A DNA stretch of 64,000 nt from Candidatus Bathyarchaeota archaeon. GTDB lineage: Archaea; Thermoproteota; Bathyarchaeia; Bathyarchaeales; Bathycorpusculaceae. Shown here piece by piece: positions 9,768 through 26,492 of the stretch. The notes beneath the pieces were generated by a model. That model was not told the origin of the DNA and ran no database searches. It worked only from the letters and a program-made list of their open reading frames with translations. The position numbers were made by a program, and so were the translations under genes. Where the stretch lies: NCBI GenBank assembly GCA_963826715.1, contig CAWGYA010000008.1:160001-224000 (forward strand), written 5' to 3'. Position 1 is the first letter of the stretch. Each line of letters opens with the position of its first letter.

Positions 9768-10034
9768 TTTATGTAATTGTTTCTAAAAAAAAGAGTGGTC
9801 AATTAATTATTTTAAAACATAAAAGCTTTTAAGAATAAAACTAATGCGTAATCGATCACATTGAAGAGTTGTTATATGAAAGTTCTATGATACCAGGAAA
9901 CTTAAATATTAAATCCTTAGGTGCAAGAGCAAGATTTGGGCTCTTGTGCGCAATTAAAAAAAAGCTGACAAAAAATAACTCAAATATGAATATTGAATAG
10001 TGCACTACAAGAATTAATCTAAAGAGTTTTCCAG

Positions 10035-10526
10035 CTAAGGTTTTCGGTATAGGTAAATCGTGTGCGAAGGATAACCCAGCACGGGGTTTTCACAAAAATT
10101 CGTTACTTTCTCAGGCCGCCACCCCACTATCTCATAATCATGAGACACTATTCGGGCATCTTTTTTTAGATCTAATTCGAGTTTGGGCTTGATTTTCTCG
10201 TTTGCACTTGTGGTTAAGTAAAGATAGACTACGTCTGCAGCGGTTAAGTTCACATTGAACATGTCATCGTTTATGATAGTTACCCGGTCTTCAAGCCCAC
10301 TTTCATAAATATTTCCCAGTGCCTTCTTAGCTAAATCCTCGCGCAGCTCAATACCTACGCCGCGTGCGCCAAAGTTTTTTGCGCCAAAAATCACGGTTCT
10401 TCCATCGCCTGAGCCCATATCAAATAATACCTCGCCTGACTTTAAACCAGCGAGTTTTAGCATGTATTCTACAACGCTACTTGGACTTGGAACAAAGGGC
10501 GCTATAAACATATTTTTTATCCCCAA
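10035..10526 (-). CDS. SAM-dependent protein-lysine methyltransferase, aKMT-like
   Basis: APFVPSP, DMGSGDGR, KPKLE..L...ARIVSHDY, HTIYLY resemble Sulfolobus aKMT. Confidence 0.8.
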   Translation of the reverse strand: MGIKNMFIAPFVPSPSSVVEYMLKLAGLKSGEVLFDMGSGDGRTVIFGAKNFGARGVGIELREDLAKKALGNIYESGLEDRVTIINDDMFNVNLTAADVVYLYLTTSANEKIKPKLELDLKKDARIVSHDYEIVGWRPEKVTNFCENPVLGYPSHTIYLYRKP

Positions 10527-10543
10527 CCAAGGATATTTTCCTG

Positions 10544-10870
10544 TTATGCTACATAAGCGTCTCTTTTAGGTTGTGGTCTTCTTGCTTCTCCACATTTCGC
10601 GCAGCTCTGAACACACAAATCAAGGTATTTCTCTTCATCTGATGTACCTATCGCATATGCAGCTTTAGAGCAAAGTTCGCTGGGTTCACTGCAGCCTTCC
10701 TTACTGCATAAAGTAGAGATGTATTCGCAAACATCCTTTACGTCTTGTGGCTCCAGAATTGCCCTGTTTGTTCGCACAATTAAGCAGAGTTCCCGTGCCA
10801 TAACGCAGGTCTTCATGAATTTGATCCGTTCCAGTACTTCTTTGCGCAGGTTTTTTCGGCTTATCTCCAA
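10544..10870 (-). CDS. hypothetical Cys-rich protein
   Basis: 108 aa ORF co-oriented between lhr and the methyltransferase. Confidence 0.65.
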   Translation of the reverse strand: MEISRKNLRKEVLERIKFMKTCVMARELCLIVRTNRAILEPQDVKDVCEYISTLCSKEGCSEPSELCSKAAYAIGTSDEEKYLDLCVQSCAKCGEARRPQPKRDAYVA

Positions 10871-10978
10871 AGATGCATTCTCCTAAGAACATAGCAGGCA
10901 AATAACCAGAAATAAATAAGTCTTAACTTAAAAAGATAATGTAAAAACGATTGAGGCAAGAATATCCAATATGCAGGG

Positions 10979-13855
10979 TTAATGGAAGCGTTTACTGAGA
11001 GCTTTCCGTTCTGCTTCCAAAACAAGCTCATAGAAGTGGTCAGAGAGATTTTGTTCCTTTTCTAAAACCCCTGTCGCATCAGAAGCCCAAAGCCTTCGTG
11101 CACTCAACACTACCGCTGCAACTTTACCGTACTGTTCAATAAGATCCGCCGATTTTTTAGCTTGAACACGCATTTTCTCCTCATTTTTAGCCAAATGCTC
11201 ACCCTTCTTATCAAGTAGATTAATTGCCTTCTCTTCCTCTACTTTGAGCATACCAATAGCGTTGGAACCACATCTTGGGCATATAGGTTTATTCGGGAGG
11301 TCTTTTATGCGTATCATCGCCATGTAATCCCAACAGTTAGTGCAGATGAAAGTGCCTGTTTCATTAAGCAACCTTGCCTTTGCAGACTCGACTAAGACAG
11401 CCCGCATCTGTTCAGGCGGGATTAGGTCAGTTTTCATACTCACCCGTTCAATACCAACACGAGCCACAGGAGTCGGGTTCCCGGCTGTATTAACTATCTG
11501 AAGCCGCACCTCACCTTCACGCAATCGCCCCAGAACCTTTACTAAACCGTCGGCATCAAGATCTTTATTAAAAACTTCTTTGAGACCTTCTTCATAGATG
11601 GGTGTGCCTTCGAAACTGGAGATAATTTTTTGAAGGCTTACATTACTAAAGTCCGCCCATTTTTTGAGCGCGCCGAATCTGCGAGCGACTTGGATGACAC
11701 GACGCTTAAATAGCCCAGTTTTCACCGCAGAGTCAATTAAGGTTCTCCGAATAGCTGCTTCAGGTAGGTCCTTGATTTCCTTTAACACATCTACCAGTCG
11801 CTCGGCAGACATTGCACTCATAATTTGAACAAAAATCCGGTATGGATCATGCTGCACCACGATACCGCGTCCCAGCTTATCCGAGAGCACCTGCCCAAGT
11901 AGCTGCGCCAGCGCCCGATTAACTAATGAACCGAAGTTCGAGTGAATAATGATGAATTCACCCCATTCTTCTACGACAATCCGTTCGCGGGTGGGCACTG
12001 GAAAACCACTGTGGACCTGCTCAAGAGTTTCTGATATTGCATGTTGAATGGTTTGAGCATCAGCGGGATACCGCTCCGAGAGTACGGTACTGATTTGTTC
12101 AGCACTGGCGCCTCTATGAGATTGCGCTTCGACAAAACCTCGGATTTCAGCAAGGTCTTGAGCTATCTCATAAGGTACTGGGATTTCTTCGCCTATCCAA
12201 CTCGGTATCGAACCTGTGTGGTCTTCGACGGGGCGCACGTATACTTTGTCCTCGGTAGCGTGAATTATTTGCCATGGGCTTCCGCGAATGATGAATTTGG
12301 TTCCTGGCTTACCATATTCCGCCATAAATGCCTCATCAAGCACTCCTATGGAGGAATCTGCTGTTTCGTCGATGACAAGGAATTGTTTCTCTTCAGGAAT
12401 CATCGATAGATTATCAAAATAATATTCAAACAGCGCCTTACTGCGTTGAGGACGCAAAACCACTTTGTCTTCAAATGATGCCCAAGCCAGTCGTGGAAAA
12501 CGTTGGTGCATATACTTAATGATTTTTTCAATATCATCAATTGTTAGGTTCTGGAAGGGAGCGGCGTTTTTGTATATCCCCAGGATTTCCCCAAAAGTTA
12601 ACCGGCGATTTTTAAGCAGCAACCCGGCTATTTGATGTGTCAAGACATCATAGGGTTTGTCAGGTATCGAGATTGGCTCAAGCTGCTCCTGTAAAGCACG
12701 CTTAGCAATAACCAAGGCTTCAAGGGTGTCGTCGGAGTCCATGCCGATTATTATGCCCTCTGAAAGGTTGCCATAGGTGTGACCTGCTCGACCGACTCGT
12801 TGAATAAGCCGCGATACCTGCCGCGGACTCATATATTGTATGACCAAATCAATGTGGCCCACATCGATACCAAGTTCAAGGCTGCTAGTCGCAATCAGCC
12901 CCTTAAGTACACCACGTTTGAGTCCAGTTTCCGCCGCTATTCGTGAAGGCTTAGCAAGAGAGCCATGATGAATAGAAATAGGGAAGTCCATATCCCAAAC
13001 TTTAAATCGGGAAGCCAAAACCTCGGAAACCGATCGAGTATTCGTAAACAACAACACGGATTTGCGTTTGGTCATGTAGTCGCGGATAATACGTAGTCGT
13101 GCCGCCACCTCGGGATGAGTGTAGATTTTGCCTGCAAAACCAATGTCCTCCTCGGTGGGCTGTGGATAAATAACTGAGAGCTTCACCATTTTTGCCACAG
13201 AGACACGTACGATTTCGACTATACGATTGACTCCGACAAGGAATTGCGCAACTTTTTCAGGGCTACCCACTGTAGCCGATAAGCCGACCATTTGGAAGTC
13301 CTTGCCAATTAGACCACGAACCCGCTCCAGAGCCAGTGAGAGTTGACTGCCCCGTTTGCTATCAGCTAACTCATGCACTTCATCAATCACTACCCATTTA
13401 AGAGCTTGAAGATGCTGACGCAGCAACCAACCTGACAGGATAGCTTGGAGAGTTTCTGGGGTGGTAATTAGGATATCAGGTGGGCATTGACTTTGGCGAG
13501 TACGTTCTTTTTGCTCAGTATCGCCATGCCTAACTGCCAATTTGATATCGAGATTATTACACCACCATTGTAACCGTTCGAGCAAATCGCGGTTTAACGC
13601 ACGAAGCGGAGTAATATAGAGAACTTTTATGCCAGGCGTTTTAGGTTGCTGGAGAAGCATACTAAGAATAGGAAGAAAAGCCGCCTCGGTTTTTCCCGTA
13701 GCTGTCGGGGAAATAAGAAGCACATTTTTGCCTTCAAGGATTTTAGGGATGACTTTCTCTTGAGGCTCAGTAGGTTTAGAGAAGCCCCTTTGCTCAATAA
13801 GCCTCCGTACTGGCTTCACAAGAATTTCAAAAGAGCTCTCAGAAGTTACCTGCAA
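10979..13855 (-). CDS. lhr: Lhr-like SF2 helicase
   Basis: SPTATGKT, DEVH, SAT, HHGSL, QRVGRAGH; C-terminal CTNC/CPRC zinc finger. Confidence 0.92.
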   Translation of the reverse strand: MQVTSESSFEILVKPVRRLIEQRGFSKPTEPQEKVIPKILEGKNVLLISPTATGKTEAAFLPILSMLLQQPKTPGIKVLYITPLRALNRDLLERLQWWCNNLDIKLAVRHGDTEQKERTRQSQCPPDILITTPETLQAILSGWLLRQHLQALKWVVIDEVHELADSKRGSQLSLALERVRGLIGKDFQMVGLSATVGSPEKVAQFLVGVNRIVEIVRVSVAKMVKLSVIYPQPTEEDIGFAGKIYTHPEVAARLRIIRDYMTKRKSVLLFTNTRSVSEVLASRFKVWDMDFPISIHHGSLAKPSRIAAETGLKRGVLKGLIATSSLELGIDVGHIDLVIQYMSPRQVSRLIQRVGRAGHTYGNLSEGIIIGMDSDDTLEALVIAKRALQEQLEPISIPDKPYDVLTHQIAGLLLKNRRLTFGEILGIYKNAAPFQNLTIDDIEKIIKYMHQRFPRLAWASFEDKVVLRPQRSKALFEYYFDNLSMIPEEKQFLVIDETADSSIGVLDEAFMAEYGKPGTKFIIRGSPWQIIHATEDKVYVRPVEDHTGSIPSWIGEEIPVPYEIAQDLAEIRGFVEAQSHRGASAEQISTVLSERYPADAQTIQHAISETLEQVHSGFPVPTRERIVVEEWGEFIIIHSNFGSLVNRALAQLLGQVLSDKLGRGIVVQHDPYRIFVQIMSAMSAERLVDVLKEIKDLPEAAIRRTLIDSAVKTGLFKRRVIQVARRFGALKKWADFSNVSLQKIISSFEGTPIYEEGLKEVFNKDLDADGLVKVLGRLREGEVRLQIVNTAGNPTPVARVGIERVSMKTDLIPPEQMRAVLVESAKARLLNETGTFICTNCWDYMAMIRIKDLPNKPICPRCGSNAIGMLKVEEEKAINLLDKKGEHLAKNEEKMRVQAKKSADLIEQYGKVAAVVLSARRLWASDATGVLEKEQNLSDHFYELVLEAERKALSKRFH

Positions 13856-14171
13856 TACAAATTATTCCTCGATTGGTTAAAAGAATAGCTTTAGGTAGTG
13901 CTATAAAAATGTTGGATAGAAAAGTTGCAGATGACAAATTAGAGAGGCACTTTTCATTTCTAATTTTTTAGCTGTTTTATTGGTGCTGTTCCTGATGAAT
14001 ACAGAACCTTTCAATGGATAGTTTCCACATTTCCCTAACATTTTTTCGATGATGTTTACATAAAGCTGTTTAATCTCCATGATGAACTAAAAAATATCTA
14101 TCGGAAAAATATGGAAACTTTTTTATGCAATCAGCCGAATGGCATCAAAGCGATATTACGGAGGAAAATAA

Positions 14172-14342
14172 ATGGCTAAATGTCCAAAATGCGGAACCGA
14201 CGTATCGAAGCCAAAAAAGACATGGAAAATGGCAGGCCGCCCAGACAAAGCTGGAAAACGCATGCAACTCGAAATCGGCCTCTATGAATGCCCCAAATGC
14301 GGCAACGTATTCCGCGAAGTGCTAAGCAAACAAAAAATCTAA
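14172..14342 (+). CDS. cren7: Cren7-like chromatin protein (56 aa, two CxxC)
   Basis: MAKCPKCGTDVSKPKKTWKMAGRPDKAGKRMQLEIGLYECPKCGNVFREVLSKQKI; GGAGG RBS upstream. Confidence 0.8.
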   Translation: MAKCPKCGTDVSKPKKTWKMAGRPDKAGKRMQLEIGLYECPKCGNVFREVLSKQKI

Positions 14343-14351
14343 AAACGAACA

Positions 14352-14389
14352 GTGCCTCAGGATTGAGCACTCTCTATTTTTCTTTTTTT
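14352..14389 (+). terminator. short hairpin plus T-tract after cren7
   Basis: GTGCCTCA...TGAGCAC followed by TTTTTCTTTTTTT. Confidence 0.5.
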
Positions 14390-14416
14390 AAAATACCCGA
14401 TAATTAAAATCAGTTT
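14383..14416. repeat. left attachment/end site
   Basis: TTTTAAAA-N9-ATTAAAATCAGTTT. Confidence 0.75.
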
Positions 14417-14511
14417 TTAGTTTTACATAAAGCGCTATTAATTGGCATAATTAACTTAGGGCAAAATCTAAAAGCTAAAACAGTTTAATTGCAACTATCA
14501 AGGTCTTTAAA

Positions 14512-15312
14512 ATGACATTAATCCTCACTGAAGTCTCAAATTTTGGAATAGCAATGGCGGCTGATTCCGCTGTTACAATCCCAGTTATTAATGCTCATGG
14601 TGACCGACAATACAGGGTTTTGATGGGCGTTAACAAACTACAAGTAATTGAGAAATTAAATGCAGGGATAGCCATTTGGGGATTAGCTGAATTGACAATC
14701 GAACACGACCAAAAAATCGATATTGATGTTTGGTTGCGTGACTTCATACAATCTGAAAGGACAAACTACAATTCTCTTTCTGATTTTGCTACATTATTAC
14801 AAAATCGGATAAGAAATTATGTTGACCCAATAGATGCTGTTCAAAGACCATTAGGAAATATTGGTTTTCATCTTGCGGGTTTTGTAGAATACGAAGGTCA
14901 TCAAACCCCAACATTTTATCATATTCATAATGGCAGAAGTCAGGCGTTGGAGGCAAGAGGAACCCATATTGACCCAACCATCATCAATGCAAACCACGAC
15001 CTTCCTCCAAATTTAACCCAACAAGTTTTTGCTCAAGGGCAAGCATATCTAACTCGAAATGGCGACTTTACAATTTACGCTGCGCTTTTTAACCATATTG
15101 GGCAATTCCTGCAAGGTTTATCTCAATATGGTGGACTCACAATACCGCAATCAAGAAACCTAAAAGAAAGAGCCGAATGGTTGCGATTTCAAATTAAAAC
15201 CATGTCTGAACTTTACAGGCTTAGCAACTTGCATCTTCCAACAATCGGAGGAAAGATTGACACGTTACTCATAACTCCGAATAGTGTTGACGATTGCGGA
15301 TTAACCTTTTAG
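14512..15312 (+). CDS. Ntn-hydrolase, proteasome beta-like peptidase
   Basis: M-T start, GIAMAADS, NKL, FHLAGF, TIGGKI match the T1 peptidase pattern. Confidence 0.65.
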   Translation: MTLILTEVSNFGIAMAADSAVTIPVINAHGDRQYRVLMGVNKLQVIEKLNAGIAIWGLAELTIEHDQKIDIDVWLRDFIQSERTNYNSLSDFATLLQNRIRNYVDPIDAVQRPLGNIGFHLAGFVEYEGHQTPTFYHIHNGRSQALEARGTHIDPTIINANHDLPPNLTQQVFAQGQAYLTRNGDFTIYAALFNHIGQFLQGLSQYGGLTIPQSRNLKERAEWLRFQIKTMSELYRLSNLHLPTIGGKIDTLLITPNSVDDCGLTF

Positions 15313-15330
15313 ATTCCACGGTTCTATGAC

Positions 15331-15606
15331 TCATAAATCACCTAACGGATAGCCTTCACGCTTAATGACCTTAACGCCTTTGGAATTGAACATCATTGTT
15401 TTACTGCTGAAATTTATGTAAAAGCAATCCAAATCTACAAAAACCGAATGATGCTTGTCTGTAACAAACGGAAAGCGTTTCTGTAATCGCTTAACATCTT
15501 CTTGGCTTTCAGGTTCAATAACAAAACCCTCTGCGAAAACTTTGTCGCAAATCGCGCATTTCATGGATTCCTTGATTTCTTTCTTACCGAACCATACAGC
15601 CTTCAA
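15331..15606 (-). CDS. hypothetical protein, possible Zn finger
   Basis: CAIC...DLDC; TTG start overlaps the upstream stop (TTGA). Confidence 0.6.
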   Translation of the reverse strand: MKAVWFGKKEIKESMKCAICDKVFAEGFVIEPESQEDVKRLQKRFPFVTDKHHSVFVDLDCFYINFSSKTMMFNSKGVKVIKREGYPLGDL

Positions 15607-15695
15607 TCGTTAACACCTTTATCCATGCTTTTCGGGATGAACGGAACAAGCGGTTTCACGCTGTATTTTGAGGAACACAAACATGAACAACACAT
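15603..15695 (-). CDS. 30-aa Cys-rich micro-protein
   Basis: MCCSCLCSSKYSVKPLVPFIPKSMDKGVND; AGGTGA RBS; stop coupled to the next start. Confidence 0.4.
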   Translation of the reverse strand: MCCSCLCSSKYSVKPLVPFIPKSMDKGVND

Positions 15696-15867
15696 GCTCC
15701 GTTCACCTTTCCGCGTCTGAAATATCTATGCAGGGATGCTTGATATAATCGTTATCAAACGAATAAGATGTTAAAAGGCAGATTATTTACACGTTCGAGT
15801 TTTTGTTAGTGCAAAAATTTAAAACCATTATTCCGTATTAACAATTGGGAATCAAGAGGGAAATCAT

Positions 15868-16476
15868 ATGTCTATATCTCCATCTAACGACCAAGTAAGA
15901 GTTATTATTTTAGATTTTCTTCATAAGGAATTGCAAGAACATCCAAGGGATGTCACCAATAAAGAAAATATAGTTCAAGCGTTAGGGGTTCCCCAAAAAC
16001 AACTTGACTTTAACATGTTCTATCTTCAAGAAAAGGGATTAGTTGAACTCATAACTGCAATGGACGGTTGGCATTGCGCAAATATAACAGCCTATGGCAT
16101 TGATGTTATCGAAAACAAGGATTCTTACAAAAGCGAATTTCCTTTTATAAATAATACAACAATTCAAGTGCAAGGTAACAATTACGGCGCTATAATTCAA
16201 GCAAATAATCATTCAACCATTATTTTCCATCAGCAAATATCAGATGCTTTCAAGGAAGCTTATGAAAAAATTGAAAAAGAACAAAGTTTAGCTCCTGAAT
16301 TAAAGGAGCAAATAAAAGTCAAAACAAAAGCATTGGAAGAGGAACTCAATAAAGCTGAACCTGATGCAGGGATAATCCAACAATCATGGAAATGGATTAA
16401 ACAAAACGCAAACTGGTTGATTCCAACATTAACCCAAGTTGTTACCGAAGGAATAAAAATTGCCTGTGGGGTTTAA
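15868..16476 (+). CDS. N-terminal winged-helix protein with N/Q/G-rich linker and helical C-terminus
   Basis: YLQEKGLV...ITAYGID wHTH pattern; IQVQGNNYGAIIQANNHS linker. Confidence 0.65.
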   Translation: MSISPSNDQVRVIILDFLHKELQEHPRDVTNKENIVQALGVPQKQLDFNMFYLQEKGLVELITAMDGWHCANITAYGIDVIENKDSYKSEFPFINNTTIQVQGNNYGAIIQANNHSTIIFHQQISDAFKEAYEKIEKEQSLAPELKEQIKVKTKALEEELNKAEPDAGIIQQSWKWIKQNANWLIPTLTQVVTEGIKIACGV

Positions 16477-16498
16477 AGAAAGGCAAAATTGTTAACGA

Positions 16499-16999
16499 TT
16501 ACTTGTTATTCGATGCGAGAACTAAAACTGATAGACCCAAAAGTCCCATAACTATGAATGCAGCGAGCCTTCCTTTGTCTGCGCCATCTTTTATACAATA
16601 GGCTTTCTCTTGAACTTTATTTGCCAATTCATTTAACTTCTCTTGATTCATGGGGTCAAAAGTAGCATAGACTGTCGTATAACTTATCATTAAAGGAACG
16701 GGAACACCTTCTTCTGCAAAAACATAAATTTCCTTTCGAGGTTTTTTGTGATAAGCGGCTGAAATTTCCCAGTTAACCACATCTCTTGTATCTTGGTTGT
16801 TTGCTACGTTTGCCGTCCAAAATACAAAAACTGCTTCAGAAGCTTCTATTGCGTCATCCAATTTTTTGGGTAAAGGAAACGGTGTGGGGTCTTCTACTTT
16901 TGCAAGATATGGCTCAACTGGAATAAGTTTCAAGTTTGAAACAACAGTGTCGATTAACCATCCATCTTTACTGCTGTGCGCGATAAATATACGAACCAT
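16499..16999 (-). CDS. TIR-domain protein with C-terminal transmembrane helix
   Basis: RIFIAHSSKD, AIEASEAVFVFWT, VNWEISAA (catalytic-type Glu); hydrophobic C-terminus. Confidence 0.8.
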   Translation of the reverse strand: MVRIFIAHSSKDGWLIDTVVSNLKLIPVEPYLAKVEDPTPFPLPKKLDDAIEASEAVFVFWTANVANNQDTRDVVNWEISAAYHKKPRKEIYVFAEEGVPVPLMISYTTVYATFDPMNQEKLNELANKVQEKAYCIKDGADKGRLAAFIVMGLLGLSVLVLASNNK

Positions 17000-17037
17000 T
17001 ATCTATTCACTCTTGTCCTTGTATGATTAGTTAATGA

Positions 17038-17081
17038 TTTAAGTTTTTACACTACGAAAGCCTGCGATGCAAAAACTTAAA
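17038..17081. promoter_or_regulatory. back-to-back G(T/C)AAAAACTTAAA motifs (BRE/TATA-like) forming an inverted repeat
   Basis: TTTAAGTTTTTAC...GCAAAAACTTAAA; the same motif is at 17705-17717, with variants at 15811 and 14461. Confidence 0.65.
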
Positions 17082-17104
17082 GCCAAATAAACTGAGTATC
17101 AAAT

Positions 17105-17701
17105 ATGGATGAGATTTGGAAAGAAGCGAAAAATGTCAATGATAAAATTGCAATTAGGCTCGCATCCGTTCCTAATTTTGCCCTGAATGTTTATCATCCA
17201 AAACAGGTTGAATATTATTCAAAATTTACTGAGTTAATATACAAAGCATTAAACGTGGACTCGGTTTGTGGCTTCTTGCAAGAGCTTACCAAAAATCTAA
17301 GCAGCGATAAAATTGAGATAAGAGTCATGCGCTTGCCTTCTAACAGAAGCAAGATATTTGGAATTACCACGAAAGGAAGAATCCTTGACCAGCAGTTATA
17401 TGGACGTGCATGGAAAAAGAAACCTTTGGTTGATATTTTTCCCGACTGCATATTTTCTGACAATAAATCTGAGCCTTATCTGAATGTGGGATTGAGAGGA
17501 TACGTTATCAATGGTTCAATTCGAACAGTAATTCATGAACTTCTCCACAAATCAGGTTTACACGAAGAAACAAAGGTTCGCGAATTAACAGAACAACTTT
17601 ACAAGGAGTTTCGAAAGAAACACATTGCAAACTTTGACAGCGAAATTAAGCCGTTGGTTAAAGAATGGAAAAAATTTGAAAAGCAGATTAACTCAGGTTA
17701 A
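17105..17701 (+). CDS. hypothetical protein with HExxH zincin motif
   Basis: VIHELLH followed by EE. Confidence 0.6.
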   Translation: MDEIWKEAKNVNDKIAIRLASVPNFALNVYHPKQVEYYSKFTELIYKALNVDSVCGFLQELTKNLSSDKIEIRVMRLPSNRSKIFGITTKGRILDQQLYGRAWKKKPLVDIFPDCIFSDNKSEPYLNVGLRGYVINGSIRTVIHELLHKSGLHEETKVRELTEQLYKEFRKKHIANFDSEIKPLVKEWKKFEKQINSG

Positions 17702-17740
17702 CATGCAAAAACTTAAACGTTAATTAGTTGACTATCAAGC

Positions 17741-18157
17741 ATGGTCTATGAAGAGATTGTGATTTCTGTTCTCGGTGTTGTGGGAACTGCAAGCGTCGTC
17801 ACAGCTTGCTTAACATACGTTTTCGACAAGAGAAAGGAAATAGCGTTTAGAGAACAAGAGTACAAAGAAATGCGGTACAAGGCAATGGTACTCCAAATGA
17901 AAGTATTGCTAAAACCAGACGATTTGAAATACATGCAATTACATAGACCCGATTTGAAGAACATGCAAGACGTAAAAAATGAGGTTGAAACCGAACTTTA
18001 CAACTGCCTTCTATTTGCCTCAGATGATGTAATCAAATCATTAAAACAGTTTATTCTAACACCTAACAACATAACTTATGCCAAAACTGTCTTTGCAATG
18101 AGAAAAGATTGTTGGAACAAGAAAACAAGTTTGAGACCTGAAGAAATCAACATCTAA
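17741..18157 (+). CDS. hypothetical protein with N-terminal TM helix
   Basis: Hydrophobic N-terminus; own promoter motif at 17705. Confidence 0.7.
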   Translation: MVYEEIVISVLGVVGTASVVTACLTYVFDKRKEIAFREQEYKEMRYKAMVLQMKVLLKPDDLKYMQLHRPDLKNMQDVKNEVETELYNCLLFASDDVIKSLKQFILTPNNITYAKTVFAMRKDCWNKKTSLRPEEINI

Positions 18158-18183
18158 GTCGCAAAGTCAACTGAGCGATAACC

Positions 18184-18744
18184 ATGAACAAAATTAAGGA
18201 GCTTAAAAATCTTGCAGAGTTGAATTTTTGCGAAAGATGTTTCCAGTATTACAAAGCATTGATTGAACCAAACATAAAGGAATTTTTAGCTAAACCTCTG
18301 AATGATTGGCTGTGGGTCGAAAACCAAATCACTCAGATGGCTATGAAACAGAAAGGTGTATTCAAAACAAAAGAGATAATCATTCCCAATAAGGGCGAGG
18401 AAGAAAAATTCGCTAATCAAATTGACGCAAAGAAATTTAGAGAAATTAATAGATGGAGTTTCAAAAAGAAAATAGATTATCTTCATGCTGAAGGTATCCT
18501 GCAAGATTTCTCTTACAAAGTATTGGATAAAGCGAGACACGCACGAAACAAGATTCATGGAGAGCCTATTTTAACTGAATTAACTGAACAAGATTATGCT
18601 TTGTTCTCTGTATCAAATGCGATTGTCTCTCAATTATGGAGACCAACATTGTTTGAGGACAAGGTTGAAATCGACTCTTTCCTGAAAAATAATGCTGAAA
18701 AAATTGCTGAGTTGTTTTTGAAACAATCAAATAATATTATTTAG
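18184..18744 (+). CDS. HEPN-like protein
   Basis: SFKKKIDYL...ARHARNKIH, an R-x-H motif in a helical protein. Confidence 0.5.
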   Translation: MNKIKELKNLAELNFCERCFQYYKALIEPNIKEFLAKPLNDWLWVENQITQMAMKQKGVFKTKEIIIPNKGEEEKFANQIDAKKFREINRWSFKKKIDYLHAEGILQDFSYKVLDKARHARNKIHGEPILTELTEQDYALFSVSNAIVSQLWRPTLFEDKVEIDSFLKNNAEKIAELFLKQSNNII

Positions 18745-19277
18745 CTACAAGTTTTGGTAGAGTTACCTTGAAAGAGGTTAAGCTTGAAAAATTGCGATAG
18801 ATGAAGCACTTTATCGGTTTCTGTTTGCGGTTGCGCCTTAATCCTTCTTTTCTTTTGCGTCGGAAAGCTACGTTAAGAAAAGCATAGAAGCTCACCTTTC
18901 AAAAGCATCAATATCCAGAATTTTCGCACTTTTAACATCCCAAGTCGAAAGAAAACGAGCAAAATTTCTCCGATAAACGCTGAAATGCGGATGATTTGAG
19001 GAGCTTTAGGCATTATGCTATCAATGTATCAACGATTAATGTTAATTGTTGGTCGCTGTCTGCGTTTGAACGGTGCAAAAGACGCTTTATCATGTTGCAC
19101 AATCTGACGCAAAACATCGTTTATGAATCAATAAAACGCATTTTTAATCACTTCAAGCCCTCATTCATAAGCGTAACAGATAACGATGTTATCTTACTTC
19201 GGATTGACCTCGAAAAGTACAACAACCTCAGAAGCGAATCAGATTAGGTTTAAACGATTTCCTGAGCGACTGTTAAA

Positions 19278-19430
19278 CTAATCATCTATTGACTCAATCA
19301 TGGGTTGACTGCAACATTCAGGAGCTTTCTCTCCTTTGCACACAGCGGAATGAGTGCAACATATTTCATAATCAGCTTTCACAATGCGACCGCATTTGGT
19401 ACACATGAATGTTGGCATGTTTTCGCCCAT
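19278..19430 (-). CDS. 50-aa Cys-rich metal-binding protein
   Basis: MGENMPTFMCTKCGRIVKADYEICCTHSAVCKGEKAPECCSQPMIESIDD. Confidence 0.6.
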   Translation of the reverse strand: MGENMPTFMCTKCGRIVKADYEICCTHSAVCKGEKAPECCSQPMIESIDD

Positions 19431-19553
19431 AATAATTAAGGATTAAAGCCGATTAAAACATTTTCAAAGTTTTCAGGATTTTGCTATCGAAAGCCTGAGT
19501 GATAAAATGAAAACTTTGCGATAATTCGACAAAAAAAAGAAAGAAAAAAAGGT

Positions 19554-19871
19554 TTATTGTGCTGGGGCTTTTATTGCCTCAGAGACGACATTAGCGACCG
19601 CATAAAGGTGATTGCATCGACTTTTTTCGGCTGGTTTAACGTATGCGATTTTGCCCTCCTTTTTCAGCGTTGCCATTTTTGTTCGAATATAGGCGCGTCC
19701 TTGGTCAGCGTCTTTAATGCCTAATTTATCGCTGATTTCGCGCGATGATGCAGGATGCCCAACGTTTTGAACGGCTGTTATAAGCTGTTCAGTTGAGAAA
19801 TTCAGTTTTGCGTTTTGGGTTTTAGTTTTTGAGGTTTTTGTTTTGGGTGTTTTTGACATATGATTCACCAT
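19554..19871 (-). CDS. winged-helix DNA-binding protein
   Basis: PASSREISDKLGI...LKKEGKI; T-tract terminator downstream. Confidence 0.7.
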   Translation of the reverse strand: MVNHMSKTPKTKTSKTKTQNAKLNFSTEQLITAVQNVGHPASSREISDKLGIKDADQGRAYIRTKMATLKKEGKIAYVKPAEKSRCNHLYAVANVVSEAIKAPAQ

Positions 19872-20124
19872 ACATGTACAATATTTAGGCGCTGATTTAA
19901 CCCGTCTTGACTGTTTAGGGCTTGCTTTGAGTCTGTTACACTAAAACATCGTTGAAGCTGTCTCGTACAAGAATTAGGGAATCATGGGTTAAGTCTTTTG
20001 AGAATTGATGCTTTAAAACGCGCGAGCGTTTAAGGTCGAATAAGGTGCGAAAACTTTGCCTTACCGTCGCAAGTACCAATGGTGAAATTTCAGATTTCAA
20101 AAATCCAGAATTGCTGGAATAACT

Positions 20125-20453
20125 TTGGAATTGCGAAATTTCATTTTTACGGAATTCAACGCTACATTATCAAGGGAGTCATATGAAAAAACGTTTATAC
20201 AATTTAACAAAAAGGTTCCTCTTCATACAAGCCAAATTATTCCCTAATATTGTAATTCCGCAATTCCAAAAAACAGTTATGCTGTCACAGCTTCGACACC
20301 ATGATTCCGAAATTGCGGAATTTCACATTTACGGAATTCTTGTCAACTATTGAAAGGGAGGATGTTATTTGTAAAAATGTTTGAACGATATTTCTTCCTA
20401 TATTACAAAACCCTTTGATGAAATGCATAAACCTGTAATTCCGCAATTCCAAA
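20125..20453. repeat. two ~183-bp modules bounded by inverted GGAATTGCGGAATT motifs (candidate origin/iterons)
   Basis: Identical TGTAATTCCGCAATTCCAAA at 20251 and 20434; imperfect inverted copies near 20125 and 20309; TTTACGGAATTC at 20146 and 20328. Confidence 0.85.
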
Positions 20454-20480
20454 TAAAAAATAAAAAGAAAAAATAAGGAG

Positions 20481-21608
20481 CTATTGTGCCAAAGTTATCA
20501 GCCATTCTGTACCTGAACCGCGTTCTTTATTGATGTAATGATATGCTTCAAGTTTCTTGACTAGTCGAGATGCAGTAGCTTCATCGATGTTGAGATATTC
20601 CGCGATTTCTTTTTGATTCGATTGCTTTTCTCTCAACAGATGCAAAGTTTTAACAGCCATTTCTTTATGCTCTTTATTGTTCTGGAATAAATCTGTCAAT
20701 TCTAAATCCATGTCAGCGACTAATTGCTTTGTGGTTATTTCCTTCTTGATTATCTCTGATGTTATCGGGAAAATGTTATCGCTTAAAGCTGTGGCTTCAA
20801 TGCTTCTTTTTATGTACTTCAAGTAACGTCTGAATATGCCTCTGCTTAACTGTGCAGTTAACAGCAAAGCGTCTTCAGTAAATGGTTCTGTGTTGCCCCA
20901 TTTGCTTTTGTATGCTTCAACCATTTCATAGGGCTTCATCGGTGAAAGTTCAACAGCAATCATTTTTCCGAGAAAGAAATGCCCTGCATACATCTCTTTT
21001 TGTATGCCTAAAACAAAAGTCGGCAAAGTTGCTTTCTTGAACACATCGTATTCGGTTATTATGGTGCCTTCTGTCCTTGTAGCACTTTCCGATGTTCTCG
21101 AATCAGCTATCTGTTTCCATATACTTTCTATGCTTCGCAAGTCCTTGCTCATGGCATCTTTGTTTTTCTTGTTGTAGTCTGGAAGGTCAATGAATATCAT
21201 ATTGAAGCTTGAAAGGAAGGCTATGTTTGAAGCATATGGCAATCTCTCGATTATGGTCTTGCCTTCATTCATGAATTGGGCTTCTTTTTCCCTTAACCTT
21301 GTTTCCCAGTCAGGAAGCCAACGGAAAAACAGCGTCTTGATTCCTTTCGCTTTAAAATGGTTAGCCAGCATTTCTAACGTTCGACTTTTGCCTATGCCTT
21401 GAAGACCTATTACACCTATGAAGCCTTCATTAGAGTGCGATAGCATGAATATCAAGCGTTTAGCGTCGTCAGTCATGTAGAAGTTCTCGCTTGCATCCTT
21501 GATGGCTTCCCCTTGCAGATGGGTCGCCCAGTCGTAAACAATGCCTGCCTTCTGCATTGCTGGGTTTGTTCGTGCTTCACGTAATATTTTCAAACATCGT
21601 CCCATCAT
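20481..21608 (-). CDS. AAA+ ATPase with C-terminal wHTH (candidate replication initiator)
   Basis: Walker A GLQGIGKS, Walker B IFIDLPD, SRGIFR, HTH NQKEIAEYLNIDEATASRLVKKL. Confidence 0.75.
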   Translation of the reverse strand: MMGRCLKILREARTNPAMQKAGIVYDWATHLQGEAIKDASENFYMTDDAKRLIFMLSHSNEGFIGVIGLQGIGKSRTLEMLANHFKAKGIKTLFFRWLPDWETRLREKEAQFMNEGKTIIERLPYASNIAFLSSFNMIFIDLPDYNKKNKDAMSKDLRSIESIWKQIADSRTSESATRTEGTIITEYDVFKKATLPTFVLGIQKEMYAGHFFLGKMIAVELSPMKPYEMVEAYKSKWGNTEPFTEDALLLTAQLSRGIFRRYLKYIKRSIEATALSDNIFPITSEIIKKEITTKQLVADMDLELTDLFQNNKEHKEMAVKTLHLLREKQSNQKEIAEYLNIDEATASRLVKKLEAYHYINKERGSGTEWLITLAQ

Positions 21609-21916
21609 AATAATTCCTCAATATTTTGTAGCGGAGAAATTACGCAATTCCGTTTTGCTTTTGGGCGTTCATCGTAGATTATGCCTTTCTCGTCAGCAAT
21701 CACCATGATTTCTCGTTTAGAGGGCAACTTCCCTACCATTTCTGTGCAGAGGTCAAAGCAGATTTTATCTATCTCCGATTCACTGCCTTCGAAGATTAGC
21801 TTAACAAAGTTTTCATCTAACAGTTCTTCGGATAACTTTGTGATTGGAAGGTTGAGTTGTTTTGCGAAGTCGTTTTTGGCTATGATTATTAGCGTTTTAT
21901 TTTTTGTGTTTTCCAT
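21605..21916 (-). CDS. hypothetical protein
   Basis: GAGGT RBS; stop overlaps the ATPase start. Confidence 0.7.
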   Translation of the reverse strand: MENTKNKTLIIIAKNDFAKQLNLPITKLSEELLDENFVKLIFEGSESEIDKICFDLCTEMVGKLPSKREIMVIADEKGIIYDERPKAKRNCVISPLQNIEELL

Positions 21917-22069
21917 ATTGTATTACCTCATGTTGTTTTGCTTTAGCTTTGTCAAACACTCTTCCCGAAGCAAACGATTGAAGCCAGAACGAAACTGAGG
22001 AGTCGATGAGGAAAAATGACCTCAACCGTTTCCCTTTTCGGGAGTGTTTAGACTTTACTAAAGCTGAAG

Positions 22070-22987
22070 CTAATGCACCTCCTTTCCGTAGCCTGAGCGT
22101 CTTATGGCTTGTTCCACGTAACGTCTCGAAGAGATTTCGTCGGTTGTTAGGGGTGATGGAAATGGAACGTTTGCCGTTTCATTGGTTAGAAATTGAAGCT
22201 GGGAAAGGAGACATTCGTACTGTCGTTGGAGGTCGTGAAATTCTTCCAGATTATCCGAGAATGTTTTTGCCAATTGAATGCTGGGCGCTCCATTTTGAAG
22301 GGTCTTCCATGCTTCACGGTTAGCTTGGACAACGATTGGTCGAATAGTTGTAGCTTTTTTGGTTATCTCTTTCAGCTTGGTTTTTATTTCTTTGATTCGT
22401 GGGCTGTTTTGTCTTTTAGAAATTTCGGCTTCATAGATTGCAATTCGGCGTTTGCGAATAACTATTGCCTTTTCAAGAACAGCGATTTCAGCTTTAGCCA
22501 ACTTTTCTCGGTAAGGATAATCCGATGATGAGATGAGTTCAATGCCGTTGCCATTTTGAATTTCAATTGTTTCGTGTTTTTCAGCTTTCTTCTTTGTTTC
22601 TTCACTAAGTATTGTTGTTAAGCGAAATTGTATGGCTTCGATGTATCCATCGACTTTTGAACGTTCGTTTTCGCTATCTTTTGTTAATTCCCGAAATTTC
22701 AGCGTGTTGGCATATGTTTTGATTATTTCATCGATGTCTTCGGAATTGTTGTAAGTGTGATTGCCTGCAATTTTGTCTCCCAAATTCAAAAATAACTTAA
22801 CTTCTCGTTTCTCATTATCCCGTGTCGCTTCTCCCTGAAGCCTCTTTAGCTCTGCTTCATATTCTTCCTTGGTTGCGTTCCCTGCCTTGTATGCAAGTTG
22901 AACGGCTGATTCGTTATAACGGGAAATGGTTGCTGAGCCTATTCTGTGATGTATTATTACTAATTCAATGTCTTTTTCGTCTGTCGT
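22070..22987 (-). CDS. coiled-coil hypothetical protein (start uncertain, possibly ACG at 22987)
   Basis: Long charged helical ORF; ORF track extends it to 23083, overlapping the RHH gene. Confidence 0.65.
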   Translation of the reverse strand, partial: TTDEKDIELVIIHHRIGSATISRYNESAVQLAYKAGNATKEEYEAELKRLQGEATRDNEKREVKLFLNLGDKIAGNHTYNNSEDIDEIIKTYANTLKFRELTKDSENERSKVDGYIEAIQFRLTTILSEETKKKAEKHETIEIQNGNGIELISSSDYPYREKLAKAEIAVLEKAIVIRKRRIAIYEAEISKRQNSPRIKEIKTKLKEITKKATTIRPIVVQANREAWKTLQNGAPSIQLAKTFSDNLEEFHDLQRQYECLLSQLQFLTNETANVPFPSPLTTDEISSRRYVEQAIRRSGYGKEVH

Positions 22988-22988
22988 T

Positions 22989-23189
22989 TTACTTCCCCCC
23001 TTTTTGCTCGAATAAATCAAGGCATTTGTTGAGAAATTCATCATACGTGAGTGCCCGAGAACACAACAATTTAAGCCGTTCAAGGGTTCCCCGTTTGATG
23101 TTTATGCTTGTCAATTCTTCATACAATTTTAATTCCTCATTGTTTTCATTTTTTACATGATATACAATTGAACAACGTTTATATGACAA
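22989..23189 (-). CDS. small ribbon-helix-helix (CopG-like) regulator
   Basis: TSINIKRGTLERLK...TYDEFLNKCLD pattern. Confidence 0.6.
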   Translation of the reverse strand: MSYKRCSIVYHVKNENNEELKLYEELTSINIKRGTLERLKLLCSRALTYDEFLNKCLDLFEQKGGK

Positions 23190-23224
23190 ATATCGTACAT
23201 TTTATTTCATAAAATGAACAAAAA

Positions 23225-23746
23225 TTGTACATGGTGAAACATTTGTTATCAAAAGGCATGAAGAAATATGTATTAAGCGAGGACAAATCGGGTTACGATA
23301 AAGGCACTCAAAATACGTACAACTATCGCTTAAGAATAGACGTTAGGGAAGCAATTGAAGACCTTACCATGATACTTCAAAAACTGCCTGAGTCAGAATT
23401 GGAAGGTTTGTTTAATGACCGCACAATGGCACCCTTTTTTGAGGCATTGTTTAAAGTGCAAATAAATGCCAAAGACCATGAAGAATGGATACAGAAGAAG
23501 CATTCAAAGGAAATAAGAGTAAAACGGCAACGTTTGTTTAGATTGTCAAAAAGGGTGCTCGACATCGTAAGCAAAGGCTCTTTCGTTTCAACAATTTTAC
23601 CTGAAAGCTCAAAACATCATCTCGGTGATAAGATTGGGGTTCACGAAAAGAACCTGATAGAGATGTTTAAGATAGACAGAAATGCGCTTGAATATGATGA
23701 AAACTTTGCGAATAACGACACAAACAAAAAGAAGAATAACGGTTAA
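23225..23746 (+). CDS. hypothetical protein, divergent from the RHH gene
   Basis: 173 aa ORF; stop overlaps the integrase stop. Confidence 0.65.
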   Translation: MYMVKHLLSKGMKKYVLSEDKSGYDKGTQNTYNYRLRIDVREAIEDLTMILQKLPESELEGLFNDRTMAPFFEALFKVQINAKDHEEWIQKKHSKEIRVKRQRLFRLSKRVLDIVSKGSFVSTILPESSKHHLGDKIGVHEKNLIEMFKIDRNALEYDENFANNDTNKKKNNG

Positions 23747-25005
23747 TCGTTACTCACAACGATTTTCCCGCTTGGAAGCGTAGTTACAACCTGATAGCCG
23801 TCAGCTAACAGTTCAGGTAATTCGCTTTCGTTCACAATGCGCTGACAATGTTTGCCGTCAGTACAACCTTTAGCTTTTGGTTTAACCGTTTTAATTTTTT
23901 CCTCTGTTGCTTCTTCCAAAACATCAACTTCATCCTTAATGTTAAGTTCGCGTCCAAGAACAATGGATTTCTGTCGAAAGATTGTTTTCATTTCGCCATC
24001 GCTTAAACCTTGCAGTTTCGCAAGCATCAACAACGCTTGTTTCTTAGCCATCAATTCCATATCACCTTGCTCAAAAGATTTAACGAAAGTTGTTTCGCCC
24101 ATAGCACGTTGATAATCTTCCCTCAATTGGTCGGGGCTAACGTATGCGCTTTCAGGAACAGTTTTACCGACAATTTGTTTCCATTTGCTTTCAGACATAT
24201 AGTTGCTTAAATGGTCAATCAAAAACTTACGCAAACAGTGAAAGCGTATGTTCTTGTTACCGTATTTTATCCCTGCCTTATCAGCTACACGCAGAAGAAT
24301 TCGAGAAAGCTGAATTTCATCACGATATTTCAGAATACGCTCATTAGCATCTGTGCGTCCATCCCTGCTCATTTGCTCAAGAAACATCTTCACAACAGGT
24401 TTAGCGTCTGTGTCTATGAACGGAAAGGCAGTAACGTTTTCCTTTTGAGTGCATAATTCACCTATGCTGATTGGCGATTCACGGTCAATGTATGCTTCCA
24501 AATCACCGCGTCTTAAACCAATGAAGTCGCCAGCTCGCAAGCCGAAAGATTTGCCAACCGTAATGATGTATTTTTCAGTTAAGTCAGCGTGGTCACACAT
24601 TTTCTTTAAATCGTCTTTGCTGAAGCGATAGTCCTCTTGAACTCTTTTATATTCAGTTAATTTCGCCTTTTCGGTGTTTCTGAACTCTAAGCCTAATCGG
24701 TGGTATGCAAAGAAGGAGCGAACAGAAGTTATAGCGACAACGCCTGAACCTGAGCTTTGTTTTTTGTTTTCCATCACCCAAGGTTTGAAAGTTAAAGTTT
24801 TTTTCTCCCAAGAGTATTCTTTGTCTGTTTTGCGGTTTACAAGAATTTGGTCGCCTGTCATACCAACGTATTCAAGAAAATATCTCCACATTGTTTGATA
24901 ACTTGACTTTGTTGATTTCTTTAAACTATTCAACCATTCATTGGTTGCTAAATCGTTTGGAAACCACTCGTTTGTTTTTACGTTCATATTTATGTTCCTC
25001 AACAT
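23743..25005 (-). CDS. tyrosine recombinase/integrase
   Basis: GLRAGD (R), TQKE (K), FHCLRK (HxxR), IVGK, ESAY (Y); N-terminal core-binding region. Confidence 0.9.
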   Translation of the reverse strand: MLRNINMNVKTNEWFPNDLATNEWLNSLKKSTKSSYQTMWRYFLEYVGMTGDQILVNRKTDKEYSWEKKTLTFKPWVMENKKQSSGSGVVAITSVRSFFAYHRLGLEFRNTEKAKLTEYKRVQEDYRFSKDDLKKMCDHADLTEKYIITVGKSFGLRAGDFIGLRRGDLEAYIDRESPISIGELCTQKENVTAFPFIDTDAKPVVKMFLEQMSRDGRTDANERILKYRDEIQLSRILLRVADKAGIKYGNKNIRFHCLRKFLIDHLSNYMSESKWKQIVGKTVPESAYVSPDQLREDYQRAMGETTFVKSFEQGDMELMAKKQALLMLAKLQGLSDGEMKTIFRQKSIVLGRELNIKDEVDVLEEATEEKIKTVKPKAKGCTDGKHCQRIVNESELPELLADGYQVVTTLPSGKIVVSND

Positions 25006-25040
25006 GAACGTATGTCAGTGCCATATTTATACGAGTCCGT

Positions 25041-25073
25041 AAACTGATTTTAATAATAGTTTTTTTTAAAATA
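25041..25073. repeat. right attachment/end site
   Basis: AAACTGATTTTAAT-N9-TTTTAAAA, mirroring the left site. Confidence 0.75.
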
Positions 25074-25295
25074 AATAGCTCAAAGCTATTTGCAAATTTA
25101 AAGAATATTCGGTCTTTTGAAAGCTAAATATATTCTACAAAATTTTCGAAAACGAAGACCTGCGATGTTAAAGCACCAATGAAAATGGTAATTTAACAAA
25201 AAAGGGGAGCACCAAACCATCATAGATGTATTTATAAAGAAAGGTTCCGATAAAATGATATTTAAAGGCGGGTTAAAAGCAAGGAGTGAAAATAA

Positions 25296-25865
25296 TTGCC
25301 CAAAGTGAAGGCGACAATAAGCATTGAAAACGTGGTCGCTTCTGCAACAATAAACCAAAAAGTCGACTTAAATTCAGTTGTTAAGGGCTATCCGAGTGTG
25401 GAATACCGACCTGAACAATTCCCAGGTCTAGTTTTTAGGCTAAAACGTCCAAAAACTGCAACCTTGATTTTTAGTTCCGGAAAAATGGTTTGCACCGGGG
25501 CTAAATCAGAGAAAGAAGCAAAACGAGCCGTCACGAAAGTGGTTAAGGAACTAAAAAAAGGCGGTATCATCATCATTAGCAAACCTGAAATGAAAATTCA
25601 GAACATCGTAGCTTCAGGTGGACTTGGTGGAATGATAGACCTAGAAAAAGCTGCATATACCCTTGGGCATGCCATGTATGAACCAGAGCAGTTTCCCGGA
25701 TTAATTTACCGAATGGAAGATCCCAAAGTAGTGATCCTACTTTTTGCCAGCGGTAAACTAGTCTGCACAGGCGCGAAACGGGAACCGGACGTATATACAG
25801 CCGTAGAAAAATTGCATTCACTACTGGAAGAAACCGATCTTATTTTTTACGAGCAATCAGTTTAG
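25296..25865 (+). CDS. tbp: TATA-box binding protein
   Basis: Two repeats of (E/Q)N(V/I)VAS...Y.PEQFPGL...F.SGK.VCTGAK. Confidence 0.98.
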   Translation: MPKVKATISIENVVASATINQKVDLNSVVKGYPSVEYRPEQFPGLVFRLKRPKTATLIFSSGKMVCTGAKSEKEAKRAVTKVVKELKKGGIIIISKPEMKIQNIVASGGLGGMIDLEKAAYTLGHAMYEPEQFPGLIYRMEDPKVVILLFASGKLVCTGAKREPDVYTAVEKLHSLLEETDLIFYEQSV

Positions 25866-26488: not shown

Positions 26489-26492
26489 TTTT

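Follow-up and report, generated by a model that had tools for sequence, protein, structure and literature searches.

Three described systems come closest to the locus reported here. Morons are presented in PMC3594210 as independent transcription units added to prophage genomes: single genes or small groups with a promoter of their own, lying between conserved backbone genes, present in one element and missing in close relatives, and often of a host-benefit or defence type. For Thaumarchaeota, PMC6563490 describes cryptic integrated elements of less than 20 kb whose integrase is the sole broadly recognisable gene and whose cargo is variable. Archaeal integrons, in the account of PMC9668308, combine tandem open reading frames (ORFs), which generally share one orientation, with folding attC sites and an IntI that has an additional domain. 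The stretch analysed here, 64,000 nucleotides of a Candidatus Bathyarchaeota archaeon contig (the window, to which all plain coordinates refer), contains a series of short genes at 14412-19518 that an original prediction, made from the sequence alone, had read as integron-like, with single-gene cassettes captured at a hairpin site that also supplies a promoter. We found that this region forms the cargo arm of an integrative element of 10,692 bp (14383-25074). It is probable, in our judgement, that 14412-19518 is the accessory arm of this 10.7-kb element, that the motif shared by its junctions is a promoter composed of a TFB recognition element (BRE) and a TATA box, and that gene blocks are exchanged with no capture at the motif.

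The locus shares features with the first two systems. Its cargo modules are present in the window element, absent from close relatives and located between conserved genes, and they comprise single genes or small groups whose own promoters are here predicted. Phage morons differ in that the present host is archaeal, the predicted promoters are of the BRE/TATA type, the carrier is a small integrative element without recognisable virion genes, and five modules have an almost identical promoter. As in the elements described in PMC6563490, the element is small, has the integrase as its one broadly recognisable gene, is integrated in an intergenic or 3'-distal region and not in a tRNA gene, and has variable cargo. 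It differs from the Thaumarchaeota examples in its host, which belongs to Bathyarchaeia, in an empty site seen directly in metagenome contigs, and in an attachment (att) core that is a very AT-rich 13-mer.

An integrative element and its empty site

The ends of the element are marked by a 13-nt direct repeat, TTTTTTTAAAATA, at 14383-14395 (attL core) and again at 25062-25074 (attR core). Adjoining each core is an inverted arm, at 14397-14416 on the left, where it is likely an integrase-binding arm, and at 25041-25061 on the right; the two ends form an inverted repeat (I1, 14383-14416 and 25041-25074) that is 82% complementary. The arm sequence AAACTGATTTTAATWAT, a 17-mer, occurs at both element ends only, with no copy in the cargo. 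A casposon or transposon, suggested by I1, was rejected because the ends are also a direct repeat, a tyrosine recombinase lies at the right end, and excision is precise.

The site was then compared with its unoccupied form. Among 40 relatives searched at the DNA level, the flanks (10036-14390 and 25220-27000) were conserved at ~72% identity in 24 congeners, where the distance between them is mostly 180-830 bp (at most about 2.3 kb), compared with 10.8 kb here. Logan contigs from two soil-metagenome runs of one study (X1 and X3) joined position 14382 to 25061, 13 letters at the join fitting either side, and one of these two runs also contained pieces of the element at ≥99% identity. Therefore, the occupied and the precisely empty site both exist in nature, and the same junction identifies the att core as the working site of the integrase. 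The element also stands out in its G+C content, 36-39% as a whole against 43-46% in the flanks. We propose that the element moves whole, its tyrosine integrase recombining the 13-bp core between the inverted arms.

The integrase (420 aa; 23743-25005, minus strand) matched PHROG integrase families at 3e-9 and 6e-9, with phrog_216 at 3.2e-9, and no Pfam family at 0.01. In an alignment with ten homologues, GKSxGxR, TxKE, FHCxR, the W in ESxWKQIVGK, and E.AY were all kept; we take these positions to be the catalytic R-K-H-R-W-Y set. A TATAAATA box of its own precedes the ATG of the integrase gene by ~23 nt. At the other end, a motif-like GTAAAACTAAAAAC (14414-14427, minus strand), conserved in the element of a sister genome (G085), faces outward across attL and in the circular form would read toward the integrase gene. 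The opening 24 nt of this gene (24982-25005) recur in inverted, near-identical form (88%) upstream of the cargo gene p91 (15665-15688), and this near-copy is conserved in both sister elements introduced below. Possible antisense control is suggested by it, since the start of the integrase mRNA would find its complement in a minus-strand transcript of the p91 leader. The same genome encodes a second tyrosine recombinase (G000:C2:301768-302748), 30% identical to the element integrase, which may mark another element.

A junction motif with promoter geometry

Eight short ORFs lie within 14412-19518 in mixed orientation, five on the plus strand and three on the minus strand, in agreement with the original description. 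A motif had been placed at the junctions of these genes, and it was present as a full copy at five of them (14461, 15811, 17069 and 17705 on the plus strand; 17038-17050 on the minus strand). The partial copies, GCAAAATT at 16483 and GCAAAG at 18161, span 6-8 nt and could not be distinguished from chance; a 19-kb sister locus has 30 occurrences of GCAAAA alone, the copy at 16483 sits between convergent genes, and no TATA box follows 18161. The gaps of 3, 6 and 3 nt given between a stop codon and the next motif were correct (17701 to 17705, 16476 to 16483, and 18157 to 18161).

The consensus GYAAAANYTWAAA had five matches in the 64-kb window, all within 14461-17717, where 0.59 were expected; none of 100 shuffles reached five. 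Genome-wide (2.64 Mb) there were 20 matches, five of them in the cargo region. With at most 2 mismatches and at most 90 nt upstream, a copy preceded 5 of the 8 cargo genes and none of the 5 backbone genes, compared with 26 of 2,145 crude ORF upstream regions across the genome. Among the 37 host tRNA genes, 9 had a loose form, GNAAR-N1-3-YTWAW, at 40-52 nt upstream; shuffles gave a mean of 0.95 and a maximum of 6.

Each of the five copies points at a start codon, 23 nt or 38-44 nt from the end of the motif. Upstream of p266, GCAAAATCTAAAA (14461-14473, plus strand; 2 mismatches to consensus) ends 38 nt before the ATG at 14512. Upstream of p202, the end of GCAAAAATTTAAA (15811-15823, plus strand) is separated from the ATG at 15868 by 44 nt that include AGAGGG, which is Shine-Dalgarno-like. 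The minus-strand copy GTAAAAACTTAAA (17038-17050), assigned to the gene of a TIR-domain protein, ends 38 nt before the ATG at 16999. Two identical copies of GCAAAAACTTAAA, at 17069-17081 and 17705-17717 (plus strand), are assigned to p198 and to p138, the latter probably as a p138-p186 pair, and each ends 23 nt before its ATG (17105 and 17741, respectively); the copy at 17069 is part of a 16-mer, GATGCAAAAACTTAAA. Because this spacing puts the TATA centre ~26-27 nt upstream, the p198 and p138 mRNAs are implied to be leaderless. Purine-rich stretches lie between motif and ATG of p266, p202 and the TIR gene.

Host sequences were examined for the same architecture. Crude ORF starts were noisy calls that gave only a Shine-Dalgarno signal upstream, so intergenic k-mers and tRNA upstream regions were used instead. 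In host intergenic regions YTTAWAW boxes were enriched, with A-rich bases just upstream. A scan with bacterial sigma-70 and terminator models was uninformative (34 promoter-like sites compared with 32.2 expected). The geometry relative to start codons and the loose form at tRNA genes thus fit the BRE/TATA reading that had been offered for the motif.

In the mechanism that we favour, the motif GCAAAAAYTTAAA, extended to gcGATGCAAAAACTTAAAac, would act as a strong BRE plus TATA promoter read by the host transcription factor B (TFB) and TATA-binding protein (TBP), and each cargo gene or gene pair would form its own transcription unit through it, as phage morons do. The p198 and p138 genes would give rise to leaderless mRNAs; short leaders (38-44 nt) with a Shine-Dalgarno element are predicted for p266, p202 and the TIR gene; and p186 would be co-transcribed with p138. 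The p186 gene (18184-18744, plus strand; function unknown) has no promoter copy of its own, the best upstream motif match having 6 mismatches, and it is linked to p138 in two other sources, genome G059 and metagenome run X2; co-transcription of the two is probable.

Across the genus, the degenerate 13-mer was barely enriched (281 matches compared with 232 for the reversed control), and enrichment was confined to the specific variant and the 16-mer. The latter, GATGCAAAAACTTAAA, had 41 matches in 25 of 120 genus genomes and none for the reversed control. When 30 copies were fetched, only ~22 nt (gcGATGCAAAAACTTAAAac) were conserved and the flanks were unrelated. An ORF of at least 50 aa followed in 25 of the 30, starting 20-30 nt after the motif in 10 of these 25, and the 25 downstream products belong to about 19 unrelated families, mostly accessory. 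By its sequence, the 16-mer promoter is of the general host BRE/TATA type, though much more uniform.

Such uniformity could also reflect co-regulation, the bases beyond a minimal BRE/TATA (for example, the GCGAT prefix) serving as an operator for a regulator of the host or the element, or for a particular TBP or TFB paralogue, and the cargo forming a regulon comparable to the repeated operators of some phages. The conservation of the extended gcGATGCAAAAACTTAAAac in 30 copies agrees with this, as do the three winged-helix proteins encoded by the element and the presence of at least two TBP paralogues in the genome. The second TBP-like gene (G000:C1:7947-8377) has ~66% nucleotide identity to that in the window (25296-25865), and most congeners also have two matches. 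An archaeal BRE plus TATA footprint, however, accommodates a conserved stretch of ~22 nt, so the conserved bases fit without an extra factor. The element has a repeated motif of its own, at 20124-20456, and it is a different one (AATTGCGRAAT). A regulator encoded by the element is unlikely because the 16-mer is present in 25 of the 120 genomes and the integrase family (E 1e-59 or better) in only 17. We regard co-regulation as very unlikely.

Start-associated sequences and stoperators of mycobacteriophages are specific to phage clusters and are tied to translation or repressor binding. The motif described here is similar in being ~13 nt long and in standing at many junctions of a mobile genome in both orientations. 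It differs in its host BRE/TATA geometry and in its genus-wide distribution outside the element family.

Exchange of cargo blocks between anchors

With the integrase as query, the 120 genus genomes yielded one close sister, in G085 (84-85% identity), and ~15 more distant relatives at 39-51%. The G085 element (L050 6470-17081) occupies a different chromosomal site with a similar repeat, TTTTTTTAAA. It has in common with the window element the integrase, p103, an NTPase-winged-helix protein (74%), a 105-aa winged-helix protein (85%), p91 (75%) and two non-coding anchors. A metagenome contig, L063, supplies a second sister whose backbone is 92% identical. In these three versions, different DNA lies between the same anchors: similarity ends at 15748 and returns at ~18788, at AAATTGCGATA. 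Smaller variable slots were observed at 14432-15330, 19279-19533 and 21807-23016.

The left breakpoints in the sister elements did not fall on the motif; they lie 30 nt (14431 compared with 14461) and 63 nt (15748 compared with 15811) upstream of the nearest copy. By the upstream criterion used above (at most 2 mismatches, at most 90 nt), the motif preceded 0 of 5 cargo ORFs in L063 and 1 of 8 in G085. Because sister cargo mostly lacks it, the motif is not a standing feature of the cargo slots of this family, as an attC-like site must be.

Other sources showed where modules begin and end. Run X2, a hot-spring metagenome from another study, contains a variant of the cargo block over 15618-19010 (~88-98% identical over the aligned pieces); since the remaining metagenomes with sequence of this kind come from soil, related elements are present in strongly contrasting habitats. 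One X2 contig follows 15618-16466, continues with 625 other letters and resumes at 17706, a replacement that removes the TIR gene together with p198, and a second X2 contig links p138, p186 and the right anchor. Two loci in G020 have copies of p138 that are 80-82% identical and carry the same promoter; their similarity to the window extends from ATGCAAAAAC (17703) to the p138 stop codon. In G059, similarity begins exactly at 17069 and runs through p198 (75% identical at the protein level, with the same promoter upstream) to a second motif copy, a p138 with an internal deletion, and a decayed start of p186. In this locus (L072, G059:C56; reverse-complement 9900-10100) the p138 deletion starts just after the promoter, the p186 homologue is cut by stop codons and the p198 homologue is intact, so that it looks like a decaying three-gene block.

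These arrangements do not resemble single-gene cassettes, because p198, p138 and p186 are linked in two other sources. They are also at odds with a fixed site-specific junction, because the p198 stop codon is separated from the motif by 3 nt in the window element and by 31 nt in G059. Right-hand module boundaries have no motif. For the expectation that genes would be gained or lost exactly at the motif, the evidence is mixed: multi-gene blocks are swapped, two breakpoints lie 30 and 63 nt away, and three others lie at the motif edge. The comparisons support promoter-bounded, moron-like modules, with the promoters as predicted above. A host-flank segment (25143-25172) that resembles 17045-17074 (73%) was set aside, as the flank aligns with the congeners' own intergenic DNA.

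We envisage that cargo changes through replacement of blocks of one to five genes between backbone anchors, by ordinary homologous or illegitimate recombination followed by selection; this mode of exchange is inferred. Several points weigh against the combined picture of promoter motif and block exchange. Three independent breakpoints lie 0-2 nt from the 5' edge of the motif (17703 in G020, 17069 in G059 and 17706 in X2), tighter than a purely random-breakpoint model would suggest. The strict 13-mer was found upstream of none of the 37 host tRNA genes, and no RNA run was listed as containing the region, so that the transcriptional activity of the motif is predicted from its sequence. Of the 24 genes downstream of 16-mer copies elsewhere, 20 have no homologue in this genome; because of this, the 16-mer would be a promoter of the genus's flexible gene pool and would not be typical of host promoters. 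The picture does not account for 16-22 bases being identical upstream of genes so dissimilar.

An alternative is that identical promoters of 16-22 bp are portable patches of homology, at which short crossovers allow host machinery to shuffle promoter-gene modules with no dedicated recombinase. The three motif-edge breakpoints, coming from three different sources, would be explained, and so would a 16-mer that is ~90-fold over-represented by a composition estimate (41 matches compared with 0 in the control) and stands before accessory genes of about 19 unrelated families. At G088:C1:232704-236294, G003:C1:1745753-1746662, G075:C30:2259-3668 and G020:C156:2292-4189, 2-3 exact GCAAAAACTTAAA copies are clustered within 1-4 kb, and an element with a related integrase (L060) has 3 strict copies. 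Since the GCAAAAACTTAAA clusters lie upstream of small genes in other genomes, promoter-rich accessory arrays recur; ten genes downstream of such clusters matched no Pfam family except that of a neighbouring P-type ATPase. Yet conservation extends over about the TFB/TBP footprint with no hitch-hiking flanks, a picture that promoter selection alone would give, and the motif is unused at the sister-element breakpoints. With crossovers inside the repeat, some comparisons should show homology to either side of the motif, and no such case was observed. Finally, there are three cases only, one of which (17705) is forced because the preceding stop codon is only 3 nt away, which leaves no other place for an exchange that preserves p198 as well as the promoter. 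Shuffling through homology patches is unlikely, in our view. We hold a related proposal to be rather improbable as well, namely that gcGATGCAAAAACTTAAAac is a shared "plug" of the flexible gene pool of the genus that both ensures expression in any host of the genus and doubles as the crossover point of modules. If true, the plug promoter would be a recombinase-free, promoter-mediated analogue of cassette shuffling among integrative elements and chromosomal islands.

The hairpins on which the integron-like reading relied were evaluated by folding against shuffled sequences. Three of the five claimed inverted repeats folded better than shuffles (14412-14476, z -2.4; 17038-17081, z -2.2; 19465-19518, z -4.5), and two did not (the 15798 region, z -1.5; 18748-18794, z -0.2). 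The repeat at 17038-17081 is two back-to-back divergent promoter copies, for the TIR and p198 genes. That at 19465-19518, with perfect 11-nt arms (CAAAGTTTTCA / TGAAAACTTTG), is the strongest fold in the region (0 of 200 shuffles folded as well); a T-run follows the gene of the 105-aa winged-helix protein, and the repeat is located just downstream of that run. Overall, 3 of 8 folded junction regions beat shuffles, and the fold test found no hairpin at 17705, 18161 or 16483. The loop 10-mer said to be shared by two repeats, CGAAAGCCTG, has no weight, as ~13 pairs of exact 10-mers are expected by chance within 5 kb. The reported absence of RYYYAAC...GTTRRRY pairs was confirmed, with none in 14383-19540 (shuffle mean 1.43).

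An integron has an IntI-type integrase whose extra domain is situated around patch III, one attC per cassette in the form of an imperfect inverted repeat with R''/R' boxes that folds as a single strand, and cassettes in one orientation that are mostly promoterless and read from a platform promoter. Capture of single-gene cassettes by the element integrase, at a motif or hairpin that doubles as promoter, would account for the motif at five junctions and for the three breakpoints at its 5' edge. From the coordinates, the circular form would also place the integrase divergent across att from the first cargo gene, an arrangement like intI-attI-cassettes, and a short array of unrelated genes with a tyrosine recombinase is a further likeness to integrons. 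Accessory genes beside att sites, however, are common in integrative elements. The recombinase site here is the element's own att for chromosomal integration, its arm sequence is absent from the cargo, and the locus has no attC. The integrase matched no IntI model in NCBIfam at E 0.01 or better; its match there was only to the general XerA-type model, NF040815, at 1.6e-9 and 37.8 bits, far under the cut-off of 220. Unlike the tandem ORFs with attC of archaeal integrons in the account of PMC9668308, the genes lie in both orientations, with their own predicted promoters. Together with 12 of 13 sister cargo genes that have no motif, off-motif sister breakpoints at 14431 and 15748, motif-free right-hand boundaries and the variable p198 spacer, these features make integron-like capture highly improbable: blocks are swapped, sister cargo is poor in the motif, most junctions lack a hairpin, and the arm sequence is found at the ends alone.

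Gene content and place among archaeal mobile elements

The element's surroundings are archaeal, with a TATA-binding protein (25296-25865), an Lhr-type helicase (10979-13855) and an ammonium transporter among the window's markers; Rfam and tRNA scans over the 64 kb gave no matches. AmoA was not detected in the genome, a result without weight because the control genomes gave no response in that search either. Variable slot a holds p266 (14512-15312, plus strand; 266 aa, function unknown), which is missing in the G085 element. It had no family match in profile scans, and PDB sequences yielded nothing usable for p266, p198, the integrase or the NTPase. The p91 gene (15331-15606, minus strand) and its upstream region form a conserved anchor (15331-15748) with 77-81% nucleotide identity in both sister elements. 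The variable block b that follows begins with p202 (15868-16476, plus strand), which has a winged-helix-like N-terminus (phrog_436, 1.8e-6) and a C-terminus with a weak likeness to the PADLOC candidate PDC-M14B (2.7e-5).

The TIR-domain protein (16499-16999, minus strand; 166 aa), which has a hydrophobic C-terminal segment, passed the Pfam TIR_2 cut-off narrowly (1.3e-6; 29.3 bits compared with 28) and weakly resembles PADLOC ThsB (2e-4). The next product, p198 (17105-17701, plus strand; 198 aa), contains a HELLH motif, and p138 (17741-18157, plus strand) is a small protein with a hydrophobic N-terminus. To the right of the block lies a second conserved anchor (18787-19248), shared with both sisters from AAATTGCGATA on. 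Slot c holds p50 (19278-19430, minus strand), a small Cys-rich ORF with a copy in G009 (76% identical), and is filled by other sequence in the sister elements. The remaining cargo genes had no matches in Pfam, PHROG, NCBIfam or PADLOC scans. The description of the region as a variable defence array at the element's left end can thus be kept as a variable accessory array of a mobile element; its defence part extends to at least one gene, that of the TIR-domain protein, which is defence-like as judged from its domain match. A role of part of the cargo in defence or exclusion is plausible.

The backbone genes lie on the minus strand. The 105-aa winged-helix protein (19554-19871; LexA_DNA_bind, 0.003) is 85% identical in G085. 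Between its gene and that of the nucleoside triphosphatase (NTPase) is a cluster of direct and inverted AATTGCG(G/A)AAT repeats (20124-20456; repeats D1, D15, I2, I3, I5 and I8) that is kept in the sister elements and looks iteron- or operator-like; related TTGCGATA words occur at 18793 and 19513, beside the borders of variable slots. The P-loop NTPase (20481-21608) has a C-terminal MarR-type winged helix (Pfam MarR, 1e-5; nSTAND3/AAA_22), is 74% identical in G085 and 94% in metagenome contigs, and may serve in replication or maintenance. Its gene adjoins the iteron-like cluster; the element gave no match to a specific replication family. The p103 ORF (21605-21916; function unknown) is 48% identical in G085. 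Slot d contains p337 (22070-23083, minus strand; function unknown), which had no family match and no tblastn match in G085.

We assign the locus, as a further member, to the archaeal cryptic integrated elements and the morons. What had been claimed as a new recombination system has become a well-bounded mobile element with a defined att core, an empty site from the same metagenome study as element pieces, sister elements and at least four variable cargo slots. In its class, Bathyarchaeia, cultured members are almost lacking and the limits of few small integrative elements have been established. How archaeal mobile elements become mosaic is a small question raised by the repeated occurrence of breakpoints at promoter edges. 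The analysis also yields a candidate strong promoter consensus for the genus; a brief literature search for such a consensus found no title or abstract on Bathyarchaeia promoters. Accessory genes of this genus often carry the same 16-nt predicted promoter, which may be useful for annotation, for the prediction of leaderless starts and, if the host is cultured, for expression constructs.

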